The notes beneath the pieces were generated by a model. It was not told where the DNA came from. It ran no database searches and saw only the letters and a list, made by a program, of their open reading frames with translations. A stretch of DNA of 64,000 bases from Thermoplasmatota archaeon (lineage in GTDB: Archaea > Thermoplasmatota > Thermoplasmata > SG8-5 > JACRNV01), in assembly GCA_040753455.1 (NCBI GenBank), contig JBFMEL010000001.1, positions 5,810-69,809 of the forward strand, written 5' to 3'. Below, in pieces: positions 11,222 through 46,115 of this stretch; the stretch's first letter is position 1, and each line of letters starts with the position of its first letter. The position numbers and the translations under genes were made by a program.

Positions 11222-11301
11222 CATCGAGCAGCCCATGTCGAAACCAGATATAAGGTTGGCGCACCGTTTTATATCTGCAGCCTCTTCGCCCTCTGATCTC
11301 G

Positions 11302-12642
11302 ATGTCCCCCGATGTGAATCCCGCACTGCGCCTGCGGAGCATAGAGCTCAGCCCAGAGATGGACGGCAGGGAGGTGGTGATCGCAGGATGGGTTCAGGAC
11401 GTGCGAAACCTGGGCGGCATCTCCTTCATCCAGCTCAGGGACAGGGGCGGGGTGGTGCAGGTGACAGCACCGAGGAAGAAGGTGCCCATAGAGATCTTCA
11501 AGGCGCTCTCCGCCCTGCCGCGCGAGAGCGTCATCGCAATAAAAGGGGTGCTGAGGGCGAACAAAGAAGCCCGCGCAGGCTTCGAGGTCATCCCCTCCGC
11601 AATGGATGTGCTGAGCATTGCTGACGCTCCCCTTCCCATGGGGGTCATAGACAAAGTGGGCGTGGATCTCGATACAAGGCTGAACAACAGGTTCATGGAC
11701 CTCAGGCGCGAGCATGTCGCAGCCATCTTCAGAATAAGGGACTGCCTCCTTTCCTCGTGCAGGGAGTTCCTCTCAGAGGAAGGGTTCGTAGAGATCCATA
11801 CCCCTAAGATCGTGGGCGCGGGAGCAGAGGGCGGTGCCACCCTCTTCCCGATCTCATACTTCGGCAGGGAGGCGTACCTTGCCCAGAGCCCGCAACTCTA
11901 CAAGCAGAGCCTGATGGCATCAGGGTTCGAAAGAGTCTACGAGATCGCGCCCGCATACAGGGCAGAGAAGAGCGACACAGTGCGGCACCTCGCAGAGTTC
12001 CTTTCCCTGGACATGGAGATGGCGTTCATCAAGGGTCCTGAGGACATAATGAAGATGACCGAGCGCCTGACGGATCATGCGATGCGAGGGGTGGAGGGCA
12101 GATGCGCCAGAGAGCTGGCGCTTCTCAATGTGACACTGCCTGAGCAGCGCCCACCGTTTCCCAGGCTCTCATATGATGAGTGCATCTCCATGCTCCGCGC
12201 TGCGGGCAGGGATGTGCCTCCAGGGGTGGAGATAGACACAGAGAACGAAAAGCTGCTGGCAGAGCTCCTCAGGACTGAGTATGGTGCAAGGCACTTCTTC
12301 ATCACGGATTTCCCCACTGAGCTCAAGCACGGCACGTTCTACGCGATGAGGAGAGACGAAGACCCGAGGCTCACATGCTACTTCGATCTCGAGTTCGACG
12401 GCGAGGAGCTGGTCTCAGGGGGTCAGAGGGAGCACAGGTACGATGTGCTCGTTCGCCAGATACAAGAGGCGGGACTGGATCCCAGCGCCTTCGAGTTCTA
12501 CCTCAATGCGTTCAGATACGGGATGCCTCCCCATGGCGGCATAGGGATGGGGATCGAGCGGTTCCTGCACGTGCTCCTGCGTCTGCCGAACATCAGGGAG
12601 TGCGTGTTGTTCCCCAGGGACAGGACGCGGCTGGTGCCTTAG
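11302..12642 (+). CDS. aspS: Aspartyl-tRNA synthetase (archaeal class II, possibly non-discriminating)
   Basis: Class II motif 3 GMPPHGGIGMGIERF, motif 2 FRAE, and an N-terminal OB fold. Confidence 0.9.
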   Translation: MSPDVNPALRLRSIELSPEMDGREVVIAGWVQDVRNLGGISFIQLRDRGGVVQVTAPRKKVPIEIFKALSALPRESVIAIKGVLRANKEARAGFEVIPSAMDVLSIADAPLPMGVIDKVGVDLDTRLNNRFMDLRREHVAAIFRIRDCLLSSCREFLSEEGFVEIHTPKIVGAGAEGGATLFPISYFGREAYLAQSPQLYKQSLMASGFERVYEIAPAYRAEKSDTVRHLAEFLSLDMEMAFIKGPEDIMKMTERLTDHAMRGVEGRCARELALLNVTLPEQRPPFPRLSYDECISMLRAAGRDVPPGVEIDTENEKLLAELLRTEYGARHFFITDFPTELKHGTFYAMRRDEDPRLTCYFDLEFDGEELVSGGQREHRYDVLVRQIQEAGLDPSAFEFYLNAFRYGMPPHGGIGMGIERFLHVLLRLPNIRECVLFPRDRTRLVP

Positions 12643-28554: not shown

Positions 28555-30195
28555 TCACACCACGGGCACCAGCGAAAGTCTTCCTAGGGCGGAGGGGTCC
28601 TCGATGATGAGGGCGTGCAGCCCGGTGTACGGCTTCTCCCCGTACAGGAATGTCTGATCGCCCAGGCGCTCGACCTTGACATGGATGCGCGCGGTGGACA
28701 TGATGAGGCGCTCGGTGTCGGGTTCCGAGGTGAAGCCAATGAATATAGCGCCCACCTTCCTCACCGCGTAGATGAGCGGTATGAGTGAGCCTTCCACGCG
28801 CTCATCGTACATCTTGCTGAGAGTGTCTAAGGAAAGGAGGATGACGAAAGGCTGTTGGGAGCCTGATAGGGCATATTCGATCCCTTCCCAGCGAAAGTCT
28901 GTCTCCACATTCGTCCCTTCCAGCAGGATGGTGTTCTTTAGGATGTCTTTGCTGAGACAGGTGGTAGGCTCGAAGACCCGCACGCGCTCGTAGAAGCGCT
29001 CCTCCCCGATCTGGCTGCTCAGCATCTGATAGGCTGTATGCCCTGTGCCATGCCTGGGGGGCAAGATGCAGACCCCTCTCTCCTGGGAGACGAAGTTAGC
29101 CACCATCGTATAACAGAGATTGCTCACGATGCTCGGTGAGACGTTATCTGCGAACTCGAAGACACCGACCGAGCCGTGCGCGAGTCCCCCGATGAGAAAA
29201 TCTATGTCTGCAGAGCCTGTGGACACGATATCTCCGCTGAGATCCGGAATAGGCTTGAAGTGCCTGGGCTTTCCTTCGCCGGAGCCTGGATCACCGATGG
29301 AATACCTCGGGCACTCGAAGACGCTCATTCGGCCGTCCAAAAGGGTGTAGCACACGGTCGGCTCGGTGATCGGACAGCCGCGGAGCTTCTCGATCGTTAA
29401 CACCCTCAACCGCCTTCCCTTGTGATACTGGGAGTGAAGGCGTATCACGCCGTCACCCAGATAGTCGAGCTGCGACTTCTCCGCCTCTTCGAGGATGTAC
29501 ACGAGGTTGGCTCCCGAGTTCTCGACCAGGTCCCTCTGAATAGTGTTCACGAGGCGCACCTGCGCCACTCCGTACTTCTCACTGAGGGAGTTGATGCTGT
29601 CGAACACGATCAGAGATTTCTTTGGCAACGCGCGCTCAACCACGTCATAGGCCCACTCGATCTCTGGGAGGTCGGACGACAGGTCAAGTGTCAACACCCC
29701 GTTCACCAGATCCCCGCGGTCCCCCTCTGCGGTCACGTCCGCCTCGCCCTCTATGATCTGGCCTTCGAGCTTCCTCAGTCCTGATCGATCCACTGCCACT
29801 GGCATGGTCTCGGTCCCCCTCAGCACCTTCAGGAGCGACTTCGCCTCCTGTTTGACAGCCTCGGGGAGACGCGCCTGGCATGTGCCCTTCCTCCCTCCGG
29901 GATGCAGGGCGTTCAGAAAACCACGTCCCCCGGCAATCAGGTCGTTCCTGCGCACCTTCTTCGCCAGCCATGGAAACTGGTTGTATAGACTCCTGTCAGT
30001 CACCCTCCCTGAGATGTAGTGCGTCGCCTCGATCCCCGAGAGCTCCTCGATGAGCTGCAGCGCGAACGTGGTCTTACCAGTGCCCGCATCCCCCTTTACT
30101 AGCAGGGAGTGCCCGCCAGGGCTCTCGAAGAAATCGAGTATCTGCTGAGGGATCTGTCCCTGGGCTGTTCCTCGCTTAGAACGCATTATACTCAA
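28555..30195 (-). CDS. KaiC/RecA-superfamily ATPase with two RecA-like domains. The second domain lacks a Walker A.
   Basis: Domain 1 Walker A GDAGTGKTTFALQ. Domain 2 has IGGLAHGSVGVFEFADN in the P-loop position. Confidence 0.8.
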   Translation of the reverse strand: MSIMRSKRGTAQGQIPQQILDFFESPGGHSLLVKGDAGTGKTTFALQLIEELSGIEATHYISGRVTDRSLYNQFPWLAKKVRRNDLIAGGRGFLNALHPGGRKGTCQARLPEAVKQEAKSLLKVLRGTETMPVAVDRSGLRKLEGQIIEGEADVTAEGDRGDLVNGVLTLDLSSDLPEIEWAYDVVERALPKKSLIVFDSINSLSEKYGVAQVRLVNTIQRDLVENSGANLVYILEEAEKSQLDYLGDGVIRLHSQYHKGRRLRVLTIEKLRGCPITEPTVCYTLLDGRMSVFECPRYSIGDPGSGEGKPRHFKPIPDLSGDIVSTGSADIDFLIGGLAHGSVGVFEFADNVSPSIVSNLCYTMVANFVSQERGVCILPPRHGTGHTAYQMLSSQIGEERFYERVRVFEPTTCLSKDILKNTILLEGTNVETDFRWEGIEYALSGSQQPFVILLSLDTLSKMYDERVEGSLIPLIYAVRKVGAIFIGFTSEPDTERLIMSTARIHVKVERLGDQTFLYGEKPYTGLHALIIEDPSALGRLSLVPVV

Positions 30196-30363
30196 TCAGG
30201 TTGGTATGCACTATATAATTCTTTTCATCTGGTTATCAGATGATTTTCCTGGGGCGATCGTCGCTCACCGTATCTATCGCCAGCACGGTGATACGCCGGG
30301 ATGATATTTGTCGTGCAGCGCACCTCCACATGCCCACCACTACCATTTTATATCCGGGCGCGG

Positions 30364-31563
30364 ATGCTTTTCCGTATGGAGCAGGGGGTCGCAGGTCTGC
30401 GCATCACGGTCGCCAGCAGGATACTACTCCATCTGCAGGATTACTGGTTGTGCGCAGATAGGCCGGAGTTCCCGCTGTCGGTCACCCAGCGGGGGATCGC
30501 GGATGCCACAGGGGTGCTGCTGACCCACGTGCCGAGAGCGCTGAAGCAGCTGAAGAAGGAAGGGCTCGTCCGGGAAGCCTCAGGGCATGTGGAAGGGGAG
30601 CGCAGGCGGTACAAGGTCTATTTCCTCACTGAGGAAGGGCTGCGCGTCGCTAAGGGGCTGAGGAGCTCGCTCCTGGAGACCATCGTGGCGTTCCGGGAGG
30701 ACGGAACTGTGAAAGATGCACCCCTTAAAACCCTCTTGGAGCGCATCCCCAGGGCGACGACTGGGCAGCTCATCTCCCGCATGGATGGGGAGGGGATCAT
30801 AGACCTCGGGACGAGGGCTGTAGCGCAGGGGAAGCGCACGCTGGACCAAGCACCACCTCTCGAAAAGATCATCGGAAGATCAGAGGAGATGAGGTACATG
30901 CGGCAGGCGCTGGAATCCCAGAGATGCAGGCTCCTCGTGGTCCTGGGCTCTCAGGGGGTGGGGAAGAGCGCGACAGTGCGCAGCTTCATAGAAGAAGAGT
31001 GCCCTGAGCTCGGGGCTGTCTGGATAGACCTAAGGTCTGCTCCCGGGCTCACCCATGTCTGGGAGGGGCTGAAGGCTCACTTCCACGCATTGAATGAGGC
31101 GCAGACCCCTGAAGAGATGGGGCGCGACCTCGCCCGCGCGCTCGAAGCCTCCAGGGATATAGTGGTCTTCGACGGCTACTGCGATGTGCCCGAAGCTACA
31201 GTGGAGTTCTTCGCAGCGCTGGTGGACGCGCTCCACACCTGTCGCGGTGGCGCAAAGGTGCTGATGACGATGCGCGAGGAGACCCCCTCCTACAACAGGT
31301 TCTACGAAAGGAACGATGTGGAGTCCGGACTGGTGGAGGAGATCCATCTTCGAGGCCTGGGTGCCGAGGACTCCGCCGCCCTCCTGGGTGCCGAGGGGAT
31401 AGATCCCGACGCCCTGCGCAGGATATACCTCATGACCAAGGGGAAGCCCCAGACCCTCAAGCTCATCGCCGCCGGGGACATGGAGCGCCTGAAGGCCACC
31501 ACGCGCCTCACCACGGAGGAGATACGCCTCCTGCTCTTCTTGAAGAATGTGAAGGGGGGGTGA
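30364..31563 (+). CDS. Winged-helix DNA-binding domain fused to an archaeal-ATPase-type (AAA+/ORC-like) P-loop domain
   Basis: N-terminal wHTH (ADATGVLLTHVPRALKQLKKEGLV). Walker A LGSQGVGKSA and Walker B IVVFDGY. Divergent from the KaiC-like gene. Confidence 0.65.
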   Translation: MLFRMEQGVAGLRITVASRILLHLQDYWLCADRPEFPLSVTQRGIADATGVLLTHVPRALKQLKKEGLVREASGHVEGERRRYKVYFLTEEGLRVAKGLRSSLLETIVAFREDGTVKDAPLKTLLERIPRATTGQLISRMDGEGIIDLGTRAVAQGKRTLDQAPPLEKIIGRSEEMRYMRQALESQRCRLLVVLGSQGVGKSATVRSFIEEECPELGAVWIDLRSAPGLTHVWEGLKAHFHALNEAQTPEEMGRDLARALEASRDIVVFDGYCDVPEATVEFFAALVDALHTCRGGAKVLMTMREETPSYNRFYERNDVESGLVEEIHLRGLGAEDSAALLGAEGIDPDALRRIYLMTKGKPQTLKLIAAGDMERLKATTRLTTEEIRLLLFLKNVKGG

Positions 31564-37556: not shown

Positions 37557-38159
37557 TCAATCGTTCGGTGCAGGTTGGGTGCTGGGCAGATCCAGCTCTG
37601 CGCGATGCTCCGTGAGCAGCAGGTAGCCGCTGCCGAAGAGCGGGACGAAGATGATGGTGCTGGCGATGTGCACCAGAGTGAATGAGACCTGCCCAACTAA
37701 TACGACCTGGGCATCGTAGAGGGTGTGCTTGGTGAAGAAATACCAGACCCCCAGGTCTGTCCAGAGGTCGAAGACCAGCGTGGCGATGACCCCTGAGAAT
37801 GTGATGATCCCCATGTTCTTGATCCTCAGGGCATAGCGGTTCCTCAGTCTCCTGCCGATCAGTGTAGCCATCAAGAACCCTGTGTATACGAAGAAGGTGA
37901 GCCCCAGGATGGAGGCGAGGCCATAGCTGCCCTTCAACTGATAGGCGTAGATGATGTAGTCAGTGATCGCCATCATCGCCACTGGGACGATGGCAGCGAG
38001 GGCGAGGGGCAGCACCATCCCAGCCAGGAGGGATAGGGCGAGCACAGGCTCGATGTTCGCGTAGTCTAAAAGGAGCAGACGCCCAACCACACCTATGACG
38101 ATGAACGCTATCGCCTTCTCCACGTCCCTGCGCTCGAATCTCAACCATTCAGGGAGCAT
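37557..38159 (-). CDS. Polytopic membrane protein, ECF-transporter S-component-like
   Basis: Five to six predicted TM helices in 200 aa. It lies immediately downstream of the DUF4430-like gene. Confidence 0.45.
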   Translation of the reverse strand: MLPEWLRFERRDVEKAIAFIVIGVVGRLLLLDYANIEPVLALSLLAGMVLPLALAAIVPVAMMAITDYIIYAYQLKGSYGLASILGLTFFVYTGFLMATLIGRRLRNRYALRIKNMGIITFSGVIATLVFDLWTDLGVWYFFTKHTLYDAQVVLVGQVSFTLVHIASTIIFVPLFGSGYLLLTEHRAELDLPSTQPAPND

Positions 38160-38954
38160 CTACTCACCCGGGGGCTGAGAGGTAAAATCGTCCGTGTACC
38201 ACCAGACGATGACATCCCCGGTATGCACCTCCTTCTGAGAGGCACCAACGTCTCCTGGCACGCCGTTCACGCCATAGAGCCAGAAATGCGTCATGTTGCC
38301 GGATGTGCCGTTGATCCCTGTCACGAAGTCCCCGAAGCCGACGTAGTGAACAGTCTCCACAGAAAAATTATACCTGATGCTGGCGATCTGCAAGGCATCC
38401 AGGACAGTCGTGTTGTCAAGACCTATGAGGAGGGAGGGAACTGTGATCCTCCAGTCAGCTCCATAGATGTTCAGGGTCACTGTGACCAGCTCCCCCTCTA
38501 TGATCGGGGTGCTGTTCAAGGGGTCGTCAGAGTACCAGAGAACGATCACGTCCCCGTTTTGCACTGCCTTGACGTTCAAAGGAGTGGGCTCCAAATCCAC
38601 AGTCAGCGCCCCTGTTGAATTCTCTCTCACGAAACCATACGACCAGAAGTATCCCGACTGGTTCGATGTGCCGTTCACAGAGCGAATCACCCAATCCTCA
38701 TTCTGATTCCATATCTCAATGCCTATATCCTCCTGCGTCTCTGCTGCATTTAGCACGCTTAGAACCGTGGCGTTCTCCACCCCCACGTCATGTACGGTGA
38801 TCGTCCAGCCAGGGCCGTATATCTTGAGATCCACCACTGCGGCATGGGCCGGCGGCTGCGGTCGCATGTAGTGCAGCCCTGCCAAAAGCGCCGCTATCCC
38901 TATCACCGCAGCGAGCAGCACGACGAGCGCGCTCTTAGCTTCCTTCGAGATCAT
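38160..38954 (-). CDS. Membrane-anchored protein with two tandem DUF4430-like (transcobalamin-like) domains
   Basis: N-terminal signal anchor. An internal duplication carries IYG..W.ITV and GDVIV.WY.DD motifs twice. Confidence 0.5.
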   Translation of the reverse strand: MISKEAKSALVVLLAAVIGIAALLAGLHYMRPQPPAHAAVVDLKIYGPGWTITVHDVGVENATVLSVLNAAETQEDIGIEIWNQNEDWVIRSVNGTSNQSGYFWSYGFVRENSTGALTVDLEPTPLNVKAVQNGDVIVLWYSDDPLNSTPIIEGELVTVTLNIYGADWRITVPSLLIGLDNTTVLDALQIASIRYNFSVETVHYVGFGDFVTGINGTSGNMTHFWLYGVNGVPGDVGASQKEVHTGDVIVWWYTDDFTSQPPGE

Positions 38955-39080: not shown

Positions 39081-40274
39081 CTATTCCCCGCTCCGCTCCT
39101 TGGCAGCCCTTATCTCCTCGGTGAGCGCAGGGACGACCTCGAAGAGATCGCCCACGATGCCATAATCCGCGATCTGGAAGATGGGCGCAGAGGGGTCCTT
39201 GTTGATCGCAACTATGACCTTCGAGCCCTTCATCCCTACCTGGTGCTGGATGGTGCCAGAGATGCCGCAGGCTATGTACAGTTTTGGGGACACTGTCTTC
39301 CCTGTCTGACCCACCTGATCGGAGCGGGGGCGCCAGCCAGCGTCCACGGCAGCTCTGGATGCGCCGACCGCTCCTCCGAGCACTCCAGCCAGCTCTTCGA
39401 GGACACGGAAACCATCCGCACTGCCGATCCCTCTGCCACCTGAGACGATAATCGCTGCCTCTTCCAGTCCTTTGGCACCGCTCTTCGCAGTCCTTATGAC
39501 CTCCTTCACCACCACCCTCTGCTCTTCTTTCTCGTGCAGGGGGGATAGGTTCACCACCTCAGCAGTTCTCGAGTGGTCAGGGTTGATCGTTCCGAGCACA
39601 TTCGGGCGCACGGTAGCCATCTGTGGACGTGCATTGGGGCATAAGATATCTGCCATGATGTTGCCCCCGAATGCAGGTCGGGTCTGAAGGAGCAGACCAT
39701 CCTTTATCGAGAGCCCTGTGCAGTCTGCAGTTAAGCCCGTGCCCAGGCGTGCTGCCACCCTCGGGGCTAGATCCCTGCCGATGTGCGTCGCTGGGAAGAG
39801 CACGATGCTGGGCTTGCGCTCGCGGATCAGCCTATACAGCAGAGAGGAATAGCGTGCAGTGTCGTATCGCGACAGGCGCTCCTCTTCCGCCAGGTACACG
39901 GTGTCCGCACCATAGGCTGCGAGCTCGCCGCACAGCCCCCTCACCCCACTGCCAAAGAGGACAGCGCATGCCCTCTCGCCCAGCTGGGATGCCAGCTCTC
40001 TGGCTTTGCCCATTAATTCCAGTGTTACTTTCTTTATCGTTCCATCCCGCAGCTCGGCGAGCACCCATACATCCCTGTGCCCTGCCATCATCGGCTTTGC
40101 CTGCATCTCGATCTCCATCGCATCGAACTCGCAGACCTCGACACAAGCGCCGCACAGGGTGCAGGCATCACTCACTACCGCCTTGCCATACCTCAGCGAA
40201 AGGGCACCGAAAGGGCATGCATTCACGCAGATCCCGCAGCCAGTGCATCGCTCTGCAAGGATCCTCAAGCTCAT
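39081..40274 (-). CDS. etfA: Electron transfer flavoprotein alpha subunit with an N-terminal 2x[4Fe-4S] ferredoxin domain (FixB type)
   Basis: [12 protein letters not shown] and [12 protein letters not shown] at the N-terminus. EtfA FAD-binding region ([16 protein letters not shown]). Start at MSLRIL. Confidence 0.85.
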
Positions 40275-41074
40275 TGCTCTCCCTCTGTGATGAGCCTGTG
40301 CCTGGACAGGTGTTCCATCAAGTTTCTTGCCTTCTCCCTTGCCCTCTCTCCCTCGATCATGACCCCCTTCCCCCTGGGTGGAGGGGTGTAAGTCCTCACC
40401 ACCTGGGTGAAGGAGCCCTGTATGCCAAGCCTCGTGCGCTCGCCGCCTATGGCTTCGGCGTTCCACTCCTCGTAGGGCTTCTTCTTTGCCTTTAATATCC
40501 CGCTCATCGGCGGGTATCCCGGGGTGAAGGAAGTGGGGGGGAGGAGCGCCAGGAGCGCTGGCAGACGCACCTCCATCAGCAGATAGCCCTCCTCTGTCTG
40601 CTTGCGCACCTTCAACCCGCCATCTGCGCACTCCACGCTCTCCACATAGGTGACCTGCGGGATCTCCAGATGCTGAGCCAGCTCTGGTCCGACCTGTGCC
40701 GTATCGCCGTCTATCGCCTGCTGCCCGCAGAGGACGAGATCGAACGCACCGAGCTTCTTCGCAGCCAAGGACAGGGTGTAGGAGGTCGCCCATGTGTCAG
40801 CGCCTGCAAACGCCCTGTCTGTAAGCAGCACAGCGTCATCAGCGCCCAGTGCCAGGCATCTCATCAGTGCGCTCCTTGCCTGGGGTGGACCCATACTCAG
40901 CGCAGTGACCCTTCCGCCCTTGACCTCCCTCAGCCTCACAGCCTCCTCGACCGCGAACTGGTCATAGGGGTTCAGGATGCTCGGCACGCCCTCCCTTATC
41001 AGGGTATTGGTCCTTGGGTCTATCCTTACCTCGGTGGTGTCAGGCACCTGCTTCACGCAGACGATGATCCTCAT
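40271..41074 (-). CDS. etfB: Electron transfer flavoprotein beta subunit
   Basis: MRIIVCVKQVPDT is the EtfB N-terminal signature. ATGA overlap with etfA. Confidence 0.85.
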   Translation of the reverse strand: MRIIVCVKQVPDTTEVRIDPRTNTLIREGVPSILNPYDQFAVEEAVRLREVKGGRVTALSMGPPQARSALMRCLALGADDAVLLTDRAFAGADTWATSYTLSLAAKKLGAFDLVLCGQQAIDGDTAQVGPELAQHLEIPQVTYVESVECADGGLKVRKQTEEGYLLMEVRLPALLALLPPTSFTPGYPPMSGILKAKKKPYEEWNAEAIGGERTRLGIQGSFTQVVRTYTPPPRGKGVMIEGERAREKARNLMEHLSRHRLITEGEQ

Positions 41075-41418
41075 GCGGCCCGCCCCCTCGGTGATCTTGG
41101 CATGGGGCAAGGCTCGTCCCCTATCCTCTGAGTATAGGAAGGCTGGGTCAGCGCCATCCTGAGAGAGGTGAGGACGAGGCTGCAGAGCCCGAGGCGCTTC
41201 CTGCTGAGCTCGGTGATGTCCTGCCTTGCTATGATCCATGACTTGTGGCGGTTCATGTAGCGTTCACCCATGGTGAAACACTTATGAGATATCATCTTTT
41301 CTCTTTCAGGAGATATGTTAACACATCCATCAAAACCCATTAGAAACGAGGATCGAGAGGGCAATCTTGCTTCTGTTGGTAGTCCAGATGCAGAGCTATC
41401 GGCAATAACGGTAATTAT

Positions 41419-44400
41419 ATGTATGGCGATGCAGATAAAGGGATCATGTCAGATTCCGCCACCGGGGCGAAGGGCAAGAAGGGGCAGCAGAAGCACTCCA
41501 GGAAGATCGCGGCGCTCGCTGCAGTTATCGACGCCGCAAGGGCAAAGTTAAAGGAGACGGTGCAGAAACATTCTGGGAAGATCGCAGCACTCGGCGCTGT
41601 TATCGCCGGCGCGGCTGGCGGGTTCGGACTTGTCGGGCTCTTCACTGCAGCGCTGCCGTTCCTCGGTCACAGACTGGTCGGGGAGTTCGCAGCGGCTGTG
41701 GGCGTAGAAGGCCTTGTGAAACTCGGTGAGCGAGCAGTCACAGGCGAGCCTCTGAGAAAAGAGGACCTCAGGACGCTGGAGGAGGCGCAGAGCCGATTGA
41801 TGGAGTTGCTCGCAGACTCAGCGACAGCTACGCAAAACCTGCATGCTCTTTGCGCGCAACTTTTGCAGGAGGAGCAGCTCACCCAGCACCTGACGAGCGA
41901 CATGATCAAAAGCCTTCGCGACGATATAAATAAGCTCAGCGCAGAAAATCAGGAGCAGTTCTCTGAGATCATCGGAAAGCTCGACGCGCTCCAGGAGAAG
42001 CTCGAAGAAGTGCACGAAGAGGTGCGGCGCTGCGGGCTCGTCAGCTTGAAAGAGGAAGTCTCCAGCATCAGCCGGGAGGGTCTAGAAGAGCAGCACAAAA
42101 GATTCGATGAGTATTTTCTGGGCGGAGTCCCGTGGGGCGTAATCGTATACGAGATCGATGTGCGGCGCGAGGTCACGACAAAAATCATCAACAGATTGAA
42201 GGGGGGCAACAGCATGTTGCTCCTCGGCAAGAGTGGCTCCGGAAAGAGCACGATACTGAAGCGCGCGGCGTATCTGTTGTTTCTCGAAGGATACAACGTG
42301 TTTTACAACTGCGGCAGTATCGATGTGGAGCGCGCGTACAGGTTGCTCACGGAGGAAGAGGGTACAAAGGTCGTGGTTGTGGACGATGCTGATCTTCGCT
42401 GGGACGCTATCAAAGCACTGCACGAATGCTGCATAGAGCATGGGCGTACTGACATCGTGATGCTCTTAGCCGAGCGCACGGAGCGGTTCAAGCACGGCAC
42501 GGCAGGCACAGCTATCAAAGAAGAAAAATTGACACTCACCCGTAATGATGTAAAGGAGCTTTGGAGGTCCACTGGTGATGTTGTGCCAGTAAGAGATGAT
42601 GTGATGGACTTCCTCCTCCAGTGGTGCGGCGATGAGTATATCCTCGCCAAGATATACTCGCTGGGTTACACGGGCGATTCAGAAGAACGATTGGAGGAAC
42701 TGGCGCGCACACGGTATGAGGCGCTGAGGGAGTTGCCCCGAAACCTCAGGACACCACTATTTCCTATAGCATGCATGGCTGCGTACGATTGTGCGCTACC
42801 GCGAAGGGTGTTCGAGAGGTTAGGGCATGATGCTGCGGACCTTGAGGAGTTGGCGAGGCGCGGGTATGTATCTATCGAGGACAGTGCCCTGCGGGGCTAC
42901 CACCCGGTGATTGCGAAGAGGTTTCTCCGCTGCTATCTTGAAGGGGGGGCATATGATTTTGTAGATTGCGTTGTGAACCGCATCCTGCCGCGGCTCGGCG
43001 AGGGCGAAGAGAAAGAAGCTGACGCGGGACTGTGTTTCTCGCTGGGAACAAACATTGCTGTGGAGCAAGAAGATAGGATAGAAAAGGACAAAAAAGTGCT
43101 CGAGGTTGCATTGAAATCTCTGGACAGATGTCTCGAACTGACGCCCGACCACGCGGAGGCGTGGAACAACAAAGGCAACACGCTCGATAGCATGGACCGC
43201 TACGAGGACGCGCTCGTTGCTTATGATAAGGCGCTCGCCATCAACACGCAGTTGGCGGAGGCGTGGAATAACAAAGGCACCACACTCCACCATATGCAGC
43301 GCTGTGATGAGGCACTCGTCGCTTATGATATGGCACTTGCACTCAACCCAGACTATGTAGAGGCATGGAACAACAAAGGCACTCTGGTCTCCAACATGCA
43401 GCTGCATGATGAGGCACTAGCCGCTTATGATAAGGCACTTGCACTCAACCCCGACTATGCGGCGGCGTGGAACAACAAAGGTTTCATGCTCATACGCATG
43501 GAGCGCTATGATGAGGCGCTTGCCGCCTGCGACAAAGCGCTCCAGCTCAACTCGCGGTATGTGGAGGCGTGGAACAACAAAACCCTCGCGCTCGCCCACA
43601 TGCAGCGTTGTGATGAGGCGCTTGCCGCCTGCGAGGAAGCGCTCCAACTCAATCCACGGTATGCAGAGGCGTGGAACAACAAAGGCTTCACGCTCGCATG
43701 CATGGAGCGCTATGATGAGGCACTAGCCGCTTATGATAAGGCGCTCGAATTCAACCCGCAACTTGCAGAGGCCTGGAACAACAAAGGCAACACGCTCGCA
43801 CACATGCAGCGGTACGAGGAAGCGCTCGCCGCCCATGATAAGGCGCTCGAACTCAACCCGCAGTTGACGGAGGCGTGGTACAACAAAGGCAACACACTCA
43901 ACCAAATGCAACGCTATGATGAGGCGCTCGCCGCATACGACAAAGCGGTCGAACTCAATCCACAATTTGCGAAGGCGTGGAACAACAAAGGCCTCACGCT
44001 CGCACACGTGCAGCGCTACGAGGAAGCGCTCGCCGCTTATGATAGGGCGCTCGCCATCAACCATCAGCTTGCGGAGGTGTGGTACAACAAAGGCCTCACG
44101 CTCGCACACGTGCAGCGCTACGAGGAAGCGCTCGCCGCCTATGATAAGGCGCTTGCCATCAACCCGCAGTTGGCGAAGGGGTGGGGCGCGCGCGGGCTTA
44201 CGGAGCTGAGTATGGGGAGGTACGAACATGCGGCGTTTGATTCTGCATGTGCGCACTTTCTGACACGCCTTGGGATAGGGCAGGAGAGATTGTTGGAGCC
44301 AACCGCGCGTCAGTTCATGCAGGCTAGCGATGCGCTGCGCGGCACGGGTGCGTTCCACGATGCAGCCATCCTTTACGCTGTGATGGCTTTTGAGAAAAGG

Positions 44401-44691
44401 GCTGAAGTTGCTGCGCCATTGTGGCGTGAACGTGAGAAGATCACACACATACTTGCCCGCTGCATGCTGTACGATATCGTGGGCGAAGCGCTGACCGAGA
44501 TTAAGCCGGCGATGGATGAGGAGCGCAAAGTAATCGAATGGTATGCCCGCAGCTTGGCGGAGAAAAAGGTCCATGAGGAGTTCCGGGAATACCTTTGGGC
44601 GCTGGTGCGCGGCGACGCGCGGCGCGACGCGGCGTTTGCACTTGCCACATTGTACCTGCTCGTGGAAGAAGGCGTGATGGTTTCGCCATAG
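41419..44691 (+). CDS. STAND-type P-loop NTPase: N-terminal TM/coiled-coil region, central NTPase and ~13 C-terminal TPR repeats
   Basis: Walker A LLLGKSGSGKSTILKRAAYLL and Walker B VVVVDDAD. Hydrophobic segment AALGAVIAGAAGGFGLVGLFTAALPFL. The repeated AWNNKGxxLxxMxRYDEALAAYDKAL module is a TPR. The true start is possibly the Met at 41446. Confidence 0.75.
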   Translation: MYGDADKGIMSDSATGAKGKKGQQKHSRKIAALAAVIDAARAKLKETVQKHSGKIAALGAVIAGAAGGFGLVGLFTAALPFLGHRLVGEFAAAVGVEGLVKLGERAVTGEPLRKEDLRTLEEAQSRLMELLADSATATQNLHALCAQLLQEEQLTQHLTSDMIKSLRDDINKLSAENQEQFSEIIGKLDALQEKLEEVHEEVRRCGLVSLKEEVSSISREGLEEQHKRFDEYFLGGVPWGVIVYEIDVRREVTTKIINRLKGGNSMLLLGKSGSGKSTILKRAAYLLFLEGYNVFYNCGSIDVERAYRLLTEEEGTKVVVVDDADLRWDAIKALHECCIEHGRTDIVMLLAERTERFKHGTAGTAIKEEKLTLTRNDVKELWRSTGDVVPVRDDVMDFLLQWCGDEYILAKIYSLGYTGDSEERLEELARTRYEALRELPRNLRTPLFPIACMAAYDCALPRRVFERLGHDAADLEELARRGYVSIEDSALRGYHPVIAKRFLRCYLEGGAYDFVDCVVNRILPRLGEGEEKEADAGLCFSLGTNIAVEQEDRIEKDKKVLEVALKSLDRCLELTPDHAEAWNNKGNTLDSMDRYEDALVAYDKALAINTQLAEAWNNKGTTLHHMQRCDEALVAYDMALALNPDYVEAWNNKGTLVSNMQLHDEALAAYDKALALNPDYAAAWNNKGFMLIRMERYDEALAACDKALQLNSRYVEAWNNKTLALAHMQRCDEALAACEEALQLNPRYAEAWNNKGFTLACMERYDEALAAYDKALEFNPQLAEAWNNKGNTLAHMQRYEEALAAHDKALELNPQLTEAWYNKGNTLNQMQRYDEALAAYDKAVELNPQFAKAWNNKGLTLAHVQRYEEALAAYDRALAINHQLAEVWYNKGLTLAHVQRYEEALAAYDKALAINPQLAKGWGARGLTELSMGRYEHAAFDSACAHFLTRLGIGQERLLEPTARQFMQASDALRGTGAFHDAAILYAVMAFEKRAEVAAPLWREREKITHILARCMLYDIVGEALTEIKPAMDEERKVIEWYARSLAEKKVHEEFREYLWALVRGDARRDAAFALATLYLLVEEGVMVSP

Positions 44692-44793
44692 GGCTATATA
44701 TTCAGCAGTTCGTACTTGAGATACTGGCGAAAGTTCTTAGCCCTGGGCTTCACCATCCTGAAGAACCTCGTGTGTACGGTCGTGTGTACAGGC

Positions 44794-45993
44794 TCATCTG
44801 TACGCTATGAACTCCTTGCCCAGCAGCTCCCTTGCGATGATGAGCTTCATGATCTCCACGGAGCCCTCTGCCAGTGTGAAGGAGCGCACGCCGCGCAGCG
44901 CCCTCTGGTCCGGACATTCCTTTGTGTAGCCGAAGGCTCCCTGCCACTGCATCACATCGTTGATCGCGTCGAACGCCCATACCGGAGCTATGGATTTCGC
45001 CATCGCCACAGCCATGCTGACATCGAACCTCGATGCCTTGCCCAGCATCTCCTGGTCGTATGTCCATAGGGCTTTGTAGCTCAGCTCCCTCATCGCCTGC
45101 AGCTTTACATGATGCTCTGCGAGCCTGAACTGTATCCCCTCGTACTTGCCGATCGCCCTGCCGAACGCCTTGCGCTCCTTGAGGTAGGCGATGCCGTTCT
45201 CCAGGGACTTGGCAGCTGCACCTGTGCACACCAGCCCTATCAGCGACCTTGCCAGCTCGTAACCCTCATGCACGATGTAGAACCCCTTGTTCTCCTCGCC
45301 CAGCAGGTAGTGCTTCGGGATCTCCACGTTCTCTATGTTGAAGCCGCCGAACGATATCCCTTCCCTGCCCAGCTCCTCGATGTAGGTGGGCGTGATCCCC
45401 GGCGTATCCTTCAGAGGAAGGTAGAAGAGGCACATACCTCTGGTGCCCAGCTCCTCGGTCATCCTGGCAAGGGTGACGTGCCCCCCGCCGTACCTCATCA
45501 CCTCGCCCACACCGCTGATGTACATCTTCTCTCCATTGACCACATACTTCTCCCCATCCCTCTTGATCCTGGTCTTCATAGCGCCGAGGTCGGAGCCGAT
45601 ATCTGATTCTGTGGTCGCGATACCGAGGAACTCCTTGCCCTTGATGATCTTGGGAAGGAGCTCCTCCTTGGCAGCCTCTGTGCCGTACTTGTCCAGGACA
45701 TGTGCCCAGGAGTTCACCACCAGAAAGTATACCGGGATCGCGCAGCTCGGATCTGCTCTGGCCAGCTCTTCAGCAGCGATGCCTGCGGTGACCGCATCCC
45801 CTCCCAGACCTCCATACTGCGGATCTATAACCATGCCAAGGAGCTCGAAATCCGCAAGTGCTCGGATCACATCCTCGGGCATGATCTTCTCCTGCAACAG
45901 CTTCTCGGTCCTGGGAACGATCTCCCTGGCGCAAAATTCCTTCATGCTCTCTCTGAACATCTCCTGCTCCTCTGTGAAGCTGTAATCAACCAT
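44794..45993 (-). CDS. Acyl-CoA dehydrogenase
   Basis: ACAD N-, middle- and C-terminal domains, with the catalytic region near ...GAFGYTKE. Confidence 0.85.
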   Translation of the reverse strand: MVDYSFTEEQEMFRESMKEFCAREIVPRTEKLLQEKIMPEDVIRALADFELLGMVIDPQYGGLGGDAVTAGIAAEELARADPSCAIPVYFLVVNSWAHVLDKYGTEAAKEELLPKIIKGKEFLGIATTESDIGSDLGAMKTRIKRDGEKYVVNGEKMYISGVGEVMRYGGGHVTLARMTEELGTRGMCLFYLPLKDTPGITPTYIEELGREGISFGGFNIENVEIPKHYLLGEENKGFYIVHEGYELARSLIGLVCTGAAAKSLENGIAYLKERKAFGRAIGKYEGIQFRLAEHHVKLQAMRELSYKALWTYDQEMLGKASRFDVSMAVAMAKSIAPVWAFDAINDVMQWQGAFGYTKECPDQRALRGVRSFTLAEGSVEIMKLIIARELLGKEFIAYR

Positions 45994-46115
45994 CTGTCCA
46001 GCCCCCTCAGGGTGCACGGGTATCATAAGGACGCTATAATAAGTTTCGCTCCCCCGGCAAGCCAACGCCATAGAAAGGTTTAACTACCGATTGGTGTATT
46101 CAGTCAGACGAGAGC

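Follow-up and report, generated by a model that had tools for sequence, protein, structure and literature searches.

Why does a gene for a large multidomain ATPase lie in the middle of a metabolic operon of an archaeon? The question is raised by a stretch of 64,000 nucleotides (the window) of contig JBFMEL010000001.1, assembly GCA_040753455.1, which is part of the metagenome-assembled genome (MAG) of a Candidatus Thermoplasmatota archaeon. The window holds an open reading frame (ORF) of 1090 codons at 41419-44691 on the + strand, exactly where a first-pass annotation made from the letters alone had placed it, and this ORF separates the acyl-CoA dehydrogenase gene acd from etfB and etfA, members of a fatty-acid-oxidation operon that is otherwise conserved. 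Its product is a STAND (signal transduction ATPases with numerous domains) NTPase of the nSTAND5 family (PF25199), as the family profile, the Walker motifs and the fold all agree. With a probability of roughly 55%, we read the gene as a horizontally acquired, single-gene antiviral or abortive-infection sensor whose NTPase belongs to a clade sister to that of Avs5 and whose output would be membrane damage. Only 198 of 589 prokaryotic STAND clades have been classed as defence-associated (PMC13581612), so that membership in the STAND class alone proves nothing.

The split acd-etfBA operon

The genes on either side of the STAND gene are all on the − strand, opposite to it. The upstream member of the split operon is acd (44794-46071; Pfam Acyl-CoA_dh_N, Acyl-CoA_dh_M and Acyl-CoA_dh_1), and the downstream members are etfB (40271-41074) and etfA (39081-40270), with Pfam ETF, ETF_alpha and Fer4; both are also identified by tblastn synteny. 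The Pfam assignments thus bear out the first-pass claim that a gene of opposite strand divides a coherent acd/etfB/etfA set. The true start of etfB is the ATG at 41072-41074 and not that of a longer ORF from 41239, because the alignment with relatives begins only at residue 55-56 of this long ORF. The foreign segment runs from 41075 to 44793 (3,719 bp) and consists of one gene with a flank of 344 bp on one side and of 102 bp on the other.

When genomes were scanned with the acd protein, 80 loci were obtained, of which 69 hold both acd and etfB. The closest ones are in Thermoplasmatota MAGs annotated as Thermoplasmatales, Methanomassiliicoccales or Proteinoplasmatales SG8-5, where the acd orthologues are 72-81% identical; loci of Asgard archaea are more distant, with 55-63% identity. 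The gap between acd and etfB is at most 215 bp in 65 of the 69 loci and 1,119 bp in the largest case, compared to the 3,719 bp of the window. In most of the closest relatives it is only 18-25 bp, which implies that acd and etfB are co-transcribed. A relative of the STAND gene is absent from all 80 loci, including all 69 that hold both genes, and blastn finds no match to the inserted DNA in any of them. Because the two genes are nearly contiguous in the relatives and far apart here, the simplest reading of the sequences is a lineage-specific insertion that split acd from etfBA. The first-pass annotation had suggested an insertion, and the contiguity of the genes in relatives from two phyla agrees with it. 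The split operon, the sparseness of the family described below and an atypical codon usage all argue for horizontal acquisition. With a codon-usage distance of 0.140 and a GC content at third codon positions (GC3) of 0.67, the STAND gene is the most atypical gene of the window for its length; the sole window gene of comparable length has a distance of 0.064 and a GC3 of 0.77.

The opposite situation, a housekeeping regulator kept in conserved synteny, was not found: Pfam detects no helix-turn-helix (HTH) domain in the protein, and the gene is absent from all relatives examined. A MalT/LuxR-like regulator, which the first-pass annotation had itself raised as the counter-case, is rejected, as both the HTH domain and conserved synteny are absent.

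The likelier start of the STAND gene is M10 at nt 41446, because the deposited protein MEW5936238.1 (P0001 among the proteins compared below), annotated as 'tetratricopeptide repeat protein', begins there; this protein has 1081 aa, is encoded on a contig of 77 kb and is 100% identical from residue 10. From this start the gene occupies 41446-44691 (+ strand, stop codon included) and encodes 1081 aa, with the longest ORF beginning at 41419. The divergent intergenic region between the etfB start and the STAND gene (41075-41445) has an AT-rich core at 41275-41354. Its GC content is 0.43 over 41240-41445, compared to 0.58 for the whole window, and falls to 0.33 in 40-nt windows. A TATA-like TAATTATAT (41412-41420) precedes the M10 start by about 26-30 nt, which would be the right spacing for a leaderless transcript beginning at M10, and we infer that 41075-41445 acts as the promoter region. 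Of the AT-rich promoter claimed earlier, the composition therefore stands, whereas the promoter role is a reading of the sequence. A scan for sigma-70 promoters and intrinsic terminators gave nothing above background, but it used bacterial-type models that are not applicable to an archaeon. The STAND gene would have landed between acd and etfB carrying this promoter, and its transcript would probably be leaderless from M10. As a consequence of the insertion, transcription of etfBA must now begin in the new spacer of 344 bp.

Several observations concern the surroundings of the insert. In the closest relative (locus L001), the acd-etfB spacer is 215 bp instead of the 18-25 bp of most close relatives, and at 11290-11330 it holds a partial duplicate of the etfB 5' end ('cttgcttgacacagacaattatcctcat'), so that the junction appears to be rearranged in this genome too. 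Three Asgard loci (L054, L055 and L056) have about 1.1 kb between acd and etfB, and locus L043 has 520 bp; the inserts at these four junctions are small and are not relatives of the STAND gene. In EtfA, an N-terminal ferredoxin domain (2x[4Fe-4S]) is fused to ETF and ETF_alpha, an arrangement that is shared by the relatives and recalls the electron-bifurcating Etf of anaerobes. Directly downstream of etfA are a DUF6580 gene and a DUF4430 gene (37557-38954, − strand). In none of the 80 relatives did tblastn find either gene up to 10 kb away from acd-etfBA, and hence synteny outside the three-gene core is not conserved. The downstream genes also include Fer4/CCG (heterodisulfide-reductase-like) genes, a FAD_binding_2 gene and a gene for a 1054-aa Fer4/Pyr_redox_2 protein. 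Elsewhere in the window, a gene for a GvpD/KaiC-like P-loop ATPase (28555-30195, − strand) adjoins an HTH_Crp_2 gene with AAA_16/AAA_22 (30301-31563, + strand); neither is related to the STAND gene.

Architecture of the STAND protein

The domain order described in the first-pass annotation is borne out: a non-enzymatic N-terminal module is followed by the nSTAND5 NTPase with a winged helix and then by tetratricopeptide repeats (TPRs). The NTPase itself, residues 231-360 of the 1090-aa ORF (42109-42498, + strand), matches nSTAND_NTPase5 (PF25199) with 68.2 bits (E 9e-19) in a full-length scan and with 69.5 bits (E 3.6e-19) in a domain-only scan, for a gathering cutoff of 34. The nSTAND3 family (PF20720) reaches 27.5 bits in the domain-only scan, just over its cutoff of 27.2, and 25.8 bits in the full-length scan. 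Both of the Walker motifs claimed earlier are intact, Walker A as GKSGSGKST (G270-T278, nt 42226-42252) and Walker B as VVVVDD (V318-D323, nt 42370-42387), and G270, G275, K276 and D322 are invariant in a family alignment of 15 sequences. In the AlphaFold2 (AF2) model, the STAND core has a predicted local distance difference test score (pLDDT) of 83-95. The next part, delimited on the family alignment (residues 361-578; 42499-43152, + strand), is a helical and winged-helix module with a linker and a capping helix before the TPRs; it contains a conserved 'YHP' motif and has a pLDDT of 84-93 over residues 430-566.

When the family profile was compared to the Protein Data Bank, EfAvs5 (chain 9jap_A, E 3.5e-12) was the only significant solved relative beyond the P-loop. 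This match spans the NTPase and the winged helix, with profile positions 189-464 aligned to chain residues 371-649. The same chain is the top Foldseek match of the core (3.7e-10), followed by MalT, SAMD9, Avs4, CED-4, Dark and plant NLRs (nucleotide-binding leucine-rich repeat receptors), and a structure search of BFVD gave generic AAA+/STAND matches only. On these comparisons of sequence and fold, the core is placed as the sister of the Avs5 NTPase. The protein is an Avs-like variant and belongs neither to Avs5 nor to another of the defined Avs families; the Avs-like character proposed at first holds for the NTPase, but it does not extend to a match with any Avs model of PADLOC.

The TPR array comprises residues 579-952 (43153-44274, + strand; TPR_1, E 8.6e-93), and its DNA has a period of 102 nt, for which the repeat search found nine registers. 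It consists of 10 canonical 34-aa repeats and 1 degenerate repeat, which corrects the earlier estimate of about 13. The mean pairwise identity among the TPRs is 65%, and they vary most at helix-A positions 9, 12 and 13, which in TPR-peptide complexes line the concave ligand-binding face. The array is followed by a predicted helical C-terminal region that the first-pass annotation did not mention (residues 953-1090; 44275-44688, + strand). This tail of 140 aa has no detected relatives: it matches no Pfam or PHROG family and found no homologue in a word-index protein search, whose negatives carry little weight. A single-sequence AF2 model of the array and tail had a mean pLDDT of 38 and was unusable.

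The N-terminal module contains a tandem 75-nt duplication (41457-41606, + strand; copies 71% identical) that the repeat search revealed and that encodes two 25-aa basic/amphipathic units (QKHSxKIAALxAVI). The second unit continues into a Gly/Ala-rich hydrophobic segment, I55-G83 (IAALGAVIAGAAGGFGLVGLFTAALPFLG; 41581-41667, + strand), a candidate membrane-inserting helix. Its Kyte-Doolittle maximum over 19 residues is 1.92, and its best 21-mer has an apparent insertion free energy of about +0.99 kcal/mol, compared to +10.8 for the remaining protein, the two energies being on the Hessa scale. The segment is a marginal transmembrane (TM) candidate and not a strong anchor. Only the window protein (+1.0) and a Thermoplasmata relative, P0013 (+0.65 kcal/mol), come near TM competence. 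Most relatives lack a comparable segment, and thus membrane attack cannot be the conserved output of the family as such; a conserved transmembrane anchor as a family trait is ruled out for the same reason. What remains of the membrane-associated N-terminus claimed earlier is one hydrophobic segment of marginal energy, matched only in P0013.

A helical, coiled-coil-like region follows (about residues 105-225; 41731-42093, + strand). AF2 modelled helices at 105-124, 126-142, 144-162 and 166-196 in the numbering of P0001, with a pLDDT of 34-74. The coiled coil proposed at first is therefore helical in the model, but it takes the form of several helices of 20-30 residues of low confidence. The motif RRCGLVSL (residues 203-210, nt 42025-42048), which is conserved in the family, ends this region, and at least 90% of 15 relatives agree in its G206 column. 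With the 15-sequence alignment as input, the AF2 model of the N-terminus stayed below a pLDDT of 50 over residues 1-77 and 121-151, and no fold is assignable. Pfam detected no nuclease or protease in the protein, in line with the earlier statement that none is recognisable at its N-terminus. An NCBIfam match to an alpha-xenorhabdolysin A subunit (E 0.017, residues 139-204) was discarded as coiled-coil noise.

The conserved portion of the N-terminus consists of the helical region and a CG[LIF]xxL motif, and not of the hydrophobic segment, and the relatives P0002 and P0006 have no TM-competent segment at all. Both facts would suit an adaptor-type conflict STAND protein, in which the helical module recruits a separately encoded effector in the manner of Death-like or effector-associated domains and the Gly/Ala-rich segment is a lineage-specific anchor. 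There is precedent for this, as adaptor domains N-terminal to STAND NTPases have been documented (PMC8195603, PMC7159879). However, the gene is solitary here and in a Methanococcus maripaludis provirus, with neighbours on the opposite strand and no partner carrying a related N-terminal module, and none of the proteins retrieved by phmmer with residues 1-575 matches the N-terminal region but not the NTPase. We consider the adaptor role quite improbable.

Relatives, their genomic contexts and the proposed function

Among 1.84 billion cluster representatives, an exhaustive phmmer search with residues 1-575 matched only 39 (E ≤1e-3), including the window protein itself, which is a singleton 90% cluster. 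Thirteen have E ≤1e-10, and all are at most 30% identical. The 14 best matches, P0002-P0015, share one layout: a helical N-terminus of 120-220 residues that is poorly conserved, the CG[LIF]xxL motif, nSTAND5, the winged helix with 'YHP', and TPRs. Over the N-terminus and NTPase, their identity with the window protein is 15-28%. Proteins of this type come from archaea and at least one bacterium. The named sources are Methanococcus maripaludis (WP_183546905.1) and a Thermoplasmata MAG, while another archaeon is suggested by an archaeal UPF0058 gene on the contig of one homologue, and a bacterium by an SLH-amidase gene on that of another. More distant nSTAND5 proteins carry other N-termini, namely SIR2_2 in P0018, P0020, P0040 and P0041, among others, and a multi-TM block in P0025 and P0038, the former of which also has a C-terminal glycosyltransferase. 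Because these distant relatives keep the NTPase and change the N-terminus, the N-terminus is an exchangeable output position within nSTAND5.

Other searches added little. The word-index protein search gave nothing for residues 1-560 and, with the family profile A1, only two matches, both SIR2-nSTAND5 proteins. It never returned the window protein or P0002-P0015, although all eight proteins checked (P0001-P0004, P0006, P0007, P0009 and P0013) are in its collection, so that its negatives are weak. Metagenome scans with the window protein and with alignment A2 found no relatives, a scan of viral contigs gave only 30-residue P-loop matches, and PADLOC, NCBIfam and PHROGs yielded no specific family beyond TPR and P-loop matches.

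The genomic neighbourhoods of six homologues were examined. P0002 of M. maripaludis and P0044, its mate in the same 90% cluster from another sample, lie in the interior of a tailed provirus. They are flanked on one side by genes for a minor tail protein (phrog_538, E 7e-86), for Dit and, probably, for a tape-measure protein, and on the other side by a cluster of small ORFs that includes a methyltransferase gene and a PolB-exonuclease-like gene. P0006 is 350 bp from a tyrosine integrase gene. P0042 and an MmeI-like type IIG restriction-modification gene are separated by 1.8 kb, in which lies an XRE-type HTH gene, and P0043 adjoins an Amidase_2-SLH endolysin-like gene. The context of P0009 was uninformative. 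A mobile-element or defence context is thus present at five of the six loci, a sample too small for statistics. The M. maripaludis provirus appears to be complete (locus L084, 662-9694 and 12436-22107; GCA_014203295.1, JACHIQ010000002.1, 350168-372597) and encodes an N6 methyltransferase as well as the minor tail protein, Dit, the probable tape-measure protein and the PolB-exonuclease-like protein. PHROGs match only a minority of its genes, and its tail module recurs on a contig from another sample (L086).

Given that the closest annotated homologue sits between replication-like and tail modules of a tailed provirus, that another abuts an endolysin-like gene and that the window gene has atypical codon usage, the gene might be a leftover viral accessory gene ('moron') of a decayed integrated virus. 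Its function would then have served that virus, for instance in excluding superinfection or in timing lysis, and the gene may be drifting by now. We regard this as very improbable. The insert is a single gene, and the locus contains no other viral gene, att-like repeat or integrase; moreover, the ORF of 1,081 codons is intact and keeps all NTPase motifs. Superinfection exclusion is itself a form of defence, so this alternative partly overlaps with the explanation that we prefer.

The same contexts bear on a further alternative, that of a horizontally acquired STAND protein without immune function, a membrane-tethered, nucleotide-switched TPR platform that would assemble cellular partners for signalling or scaffolding, for example in envelope, stress or developmental signalling. 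Its regular, consensus-like TPRs are like those of ordinary archaeal TPR proteins, MalT is the second-best structural match, no toxic effector is recognisable and no defence genes are neighbours in the window. Furthermore, most STAND clades are not defence-associated, and the two kinds are interspersed (PMC13581612). On the other hand, there is no HTH or other output domain, and the absence of the gene from this locus in every relative examined, together with the very sparse family, is the opposite of what a conserved regulator would show. The homologues in a provirus or beside an integrase, restriction-modification or endolysin-like gene, the immune EfAvs5 as the nearest solved relative and the SIR2 NADase-type effectors on related nSTAND5 proteins also point away from it. 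We judge a signalling role distinctly unlikely.

The antiviral reading is preferred on indirect evidence, the exchange of N-terminal modules within nSTAND5 and the mobile-element or defence contexts of the homologues. A single-gene system fits, as the gene is solitary and, in the window as in M. maripaludis, its flanking genes lie on the opposite strand. The variation of the TPRs at positions of the ligand-binding face also speaks for this reading. By analogy with characterised Avs proteins and from the architecture, the TPR solenoid, perhaps with the C-terminal tail, would bind a foreign, probably viral, protein. Binding would lift autoinhibition, and the P-loop/winged-helix core would then oligomerise in an NTP-dependent manner. 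In the last step, which is the weakest and which we find doubtful, the clustered N-termini, each a Gly/Ala-rich helix with a helical bundle, would insert into or perturb the cytoplasmic membrane and halt or kill the infected cell. A more specific version, that the N-terminus is an archaeal executioner working like the plant coiled-coil (CC) domain, HeLo or MLKL, strikes us as unlikely. The helix and a bundle of about 120 residues would then be hidden as long as the monomer is at rest, and oligomerisation of the STAND core would force them into the membrane to form a channel or pore.

A number of results weigh against an antiviral sensor with a membrane output. No Avs model of PADLOC-DB matches at E ≤1, and the matches obtained cover only short P-loop or chance stretches, the best one being mad3 (E 4e-4) over 29 residues. 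By tblastn, neither the window core nor the M. maripaludis homologue has a match among deposited phages and plasmids. There are only five informative homologue contexts, and the proteins concerned are just 21-28% identical to the window protein. At the locus, no integrase, target-site duplication, terminal (inverted) repeat or tRNA marks the insertion, and within about 10 kb there is no defence or mobile-element gene, all neighbours being metabolic or housekeeping. Characterised Avs sensors carry irregular repeats, whereas the TPRs here are regular and consensus-like. The N-terminal residues match no known effector, with only coiled-coil noise in Pfam up to E ≤10, and the module is modelled at low confidence. 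Finally, the best segments of the relatives other than P0013 have insertion energies of +2.5 to +15.8 kcal/mol, and the provirus copy P0002 is among the proteins that have no TM-competent segment.

NLR-like STAND proteins that combine repeats with an N-terminal output were known already, and in some Avs proteins this output is a TM one. The present variant stands apart by a very sparse subfamily whose identified sources are mostly archaeal, an N-terminal module without a family match, an orphan C-terminal tail, and a site in a metabolic operon instead of a defence island. Within the collection of papers searched, nSTAND5 and PF25199 are not mentioned. Experiments on STAND/NLR-like immunity have been almost entirely bacterial, and archaeal and membrane-directed, non-enzymatic members are barely explored. 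The locus provides a clean natural experiment, in which a single gene has entered an operon whose members are contiguous in both Thermoplasmatota and Asgard archaea; this contiguity makes the acquisition unambiguous, and the broken co-transcription of acd and etfBA means that a fitness cost can be studied. As M. maripaludis is genetically tractable, its provirus homologue makes the hypothesis of virus sensing with an abortive infection directed at the membrane testable. If the executioner view were true, archaea and their viruses would have a native NLR-like death switch that permeabilises the membrane, in a clade sister to Avs5, and the swap from SIR2 to a membrane effector would be visible within one NTPase family. 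If the antiviral reading is wrong, the protein is just another sporadic TPR-ATPase.

Comparison with known STAND systems

The proteins MalT (8bob) and PH0952 (6mfv), which rank 2 and 48 among the Foldseek matches, share with the window protein a STAND core with TPR-like repeats. The window protein differs from the MalT type in that it has no HTH domain, no conserved synteny and no significant sequence match to it. The membrane-targeting N-termini of NLRs and their kin (ZAR1 and Sr35, the fungal HeLo domain, the four-helix bundle (4HB) of MLKL, and the TM effectors recorded on Avs7; PMC13581612) are functional analogies only. They resemble our protein in having a non-enzymatic helical module with a hydrophobic helix before a STAND core, and CC-NLR resistosomes are among the Foldseek matches, but through the NTPase. 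No sequence similarity links the N-terminus to CC, HeLo, Bell or 4HB domains, and the pLDDT of its model is too low for a fold comparison.

Avs5 (AVAST type 5, with EfAvs5 and PaAvs5) has been described as a combination of SIR2 and nSTAND3 (PF20720; bioRxiv 10.1101/2025.07.08.663546). It resembles the window protein in its tripartite layout with C-terminal alpha-helical repeats and in being a single-gene system. In Avs5, however, the N-terminal domain is a SIR2 NADase and the NTPase is nSTAND3, whereas the window protein has no SIR2 or SIR2_2 domain in Pfam, its NTPase is nSTAND5 with nSTAND3 only at threshold, it is matched by no AVAST model of PADLOC, and its host is archaeal. Closer in NTPase family (PF25199) are the four SIR2_2-nSTAND5 proteins listed above, which phmmer matched to the window protein at E 1e-5 to 1e-4. 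Several of them have C-terminal helical repeats, with Pfam TPRs in P0020 only. They belong to another subclade, and they carry a NADase-type effector where the window protein has its hydrophobic/helical module.

The nearest counterparts are P0002-P0015, such as WP_183546905.1, annotated as 'P-loop NTPase / tetratricopeptide repeat protein'. None of them has the C-terminal tail of 140 aa, most lack a TM-competent segment, and their contexts are those of mobile elements and defence, whereas the window copy lies in a metabolic operon. They nevertheless share with it the domain order, the motifs and the existence as solitary genes.

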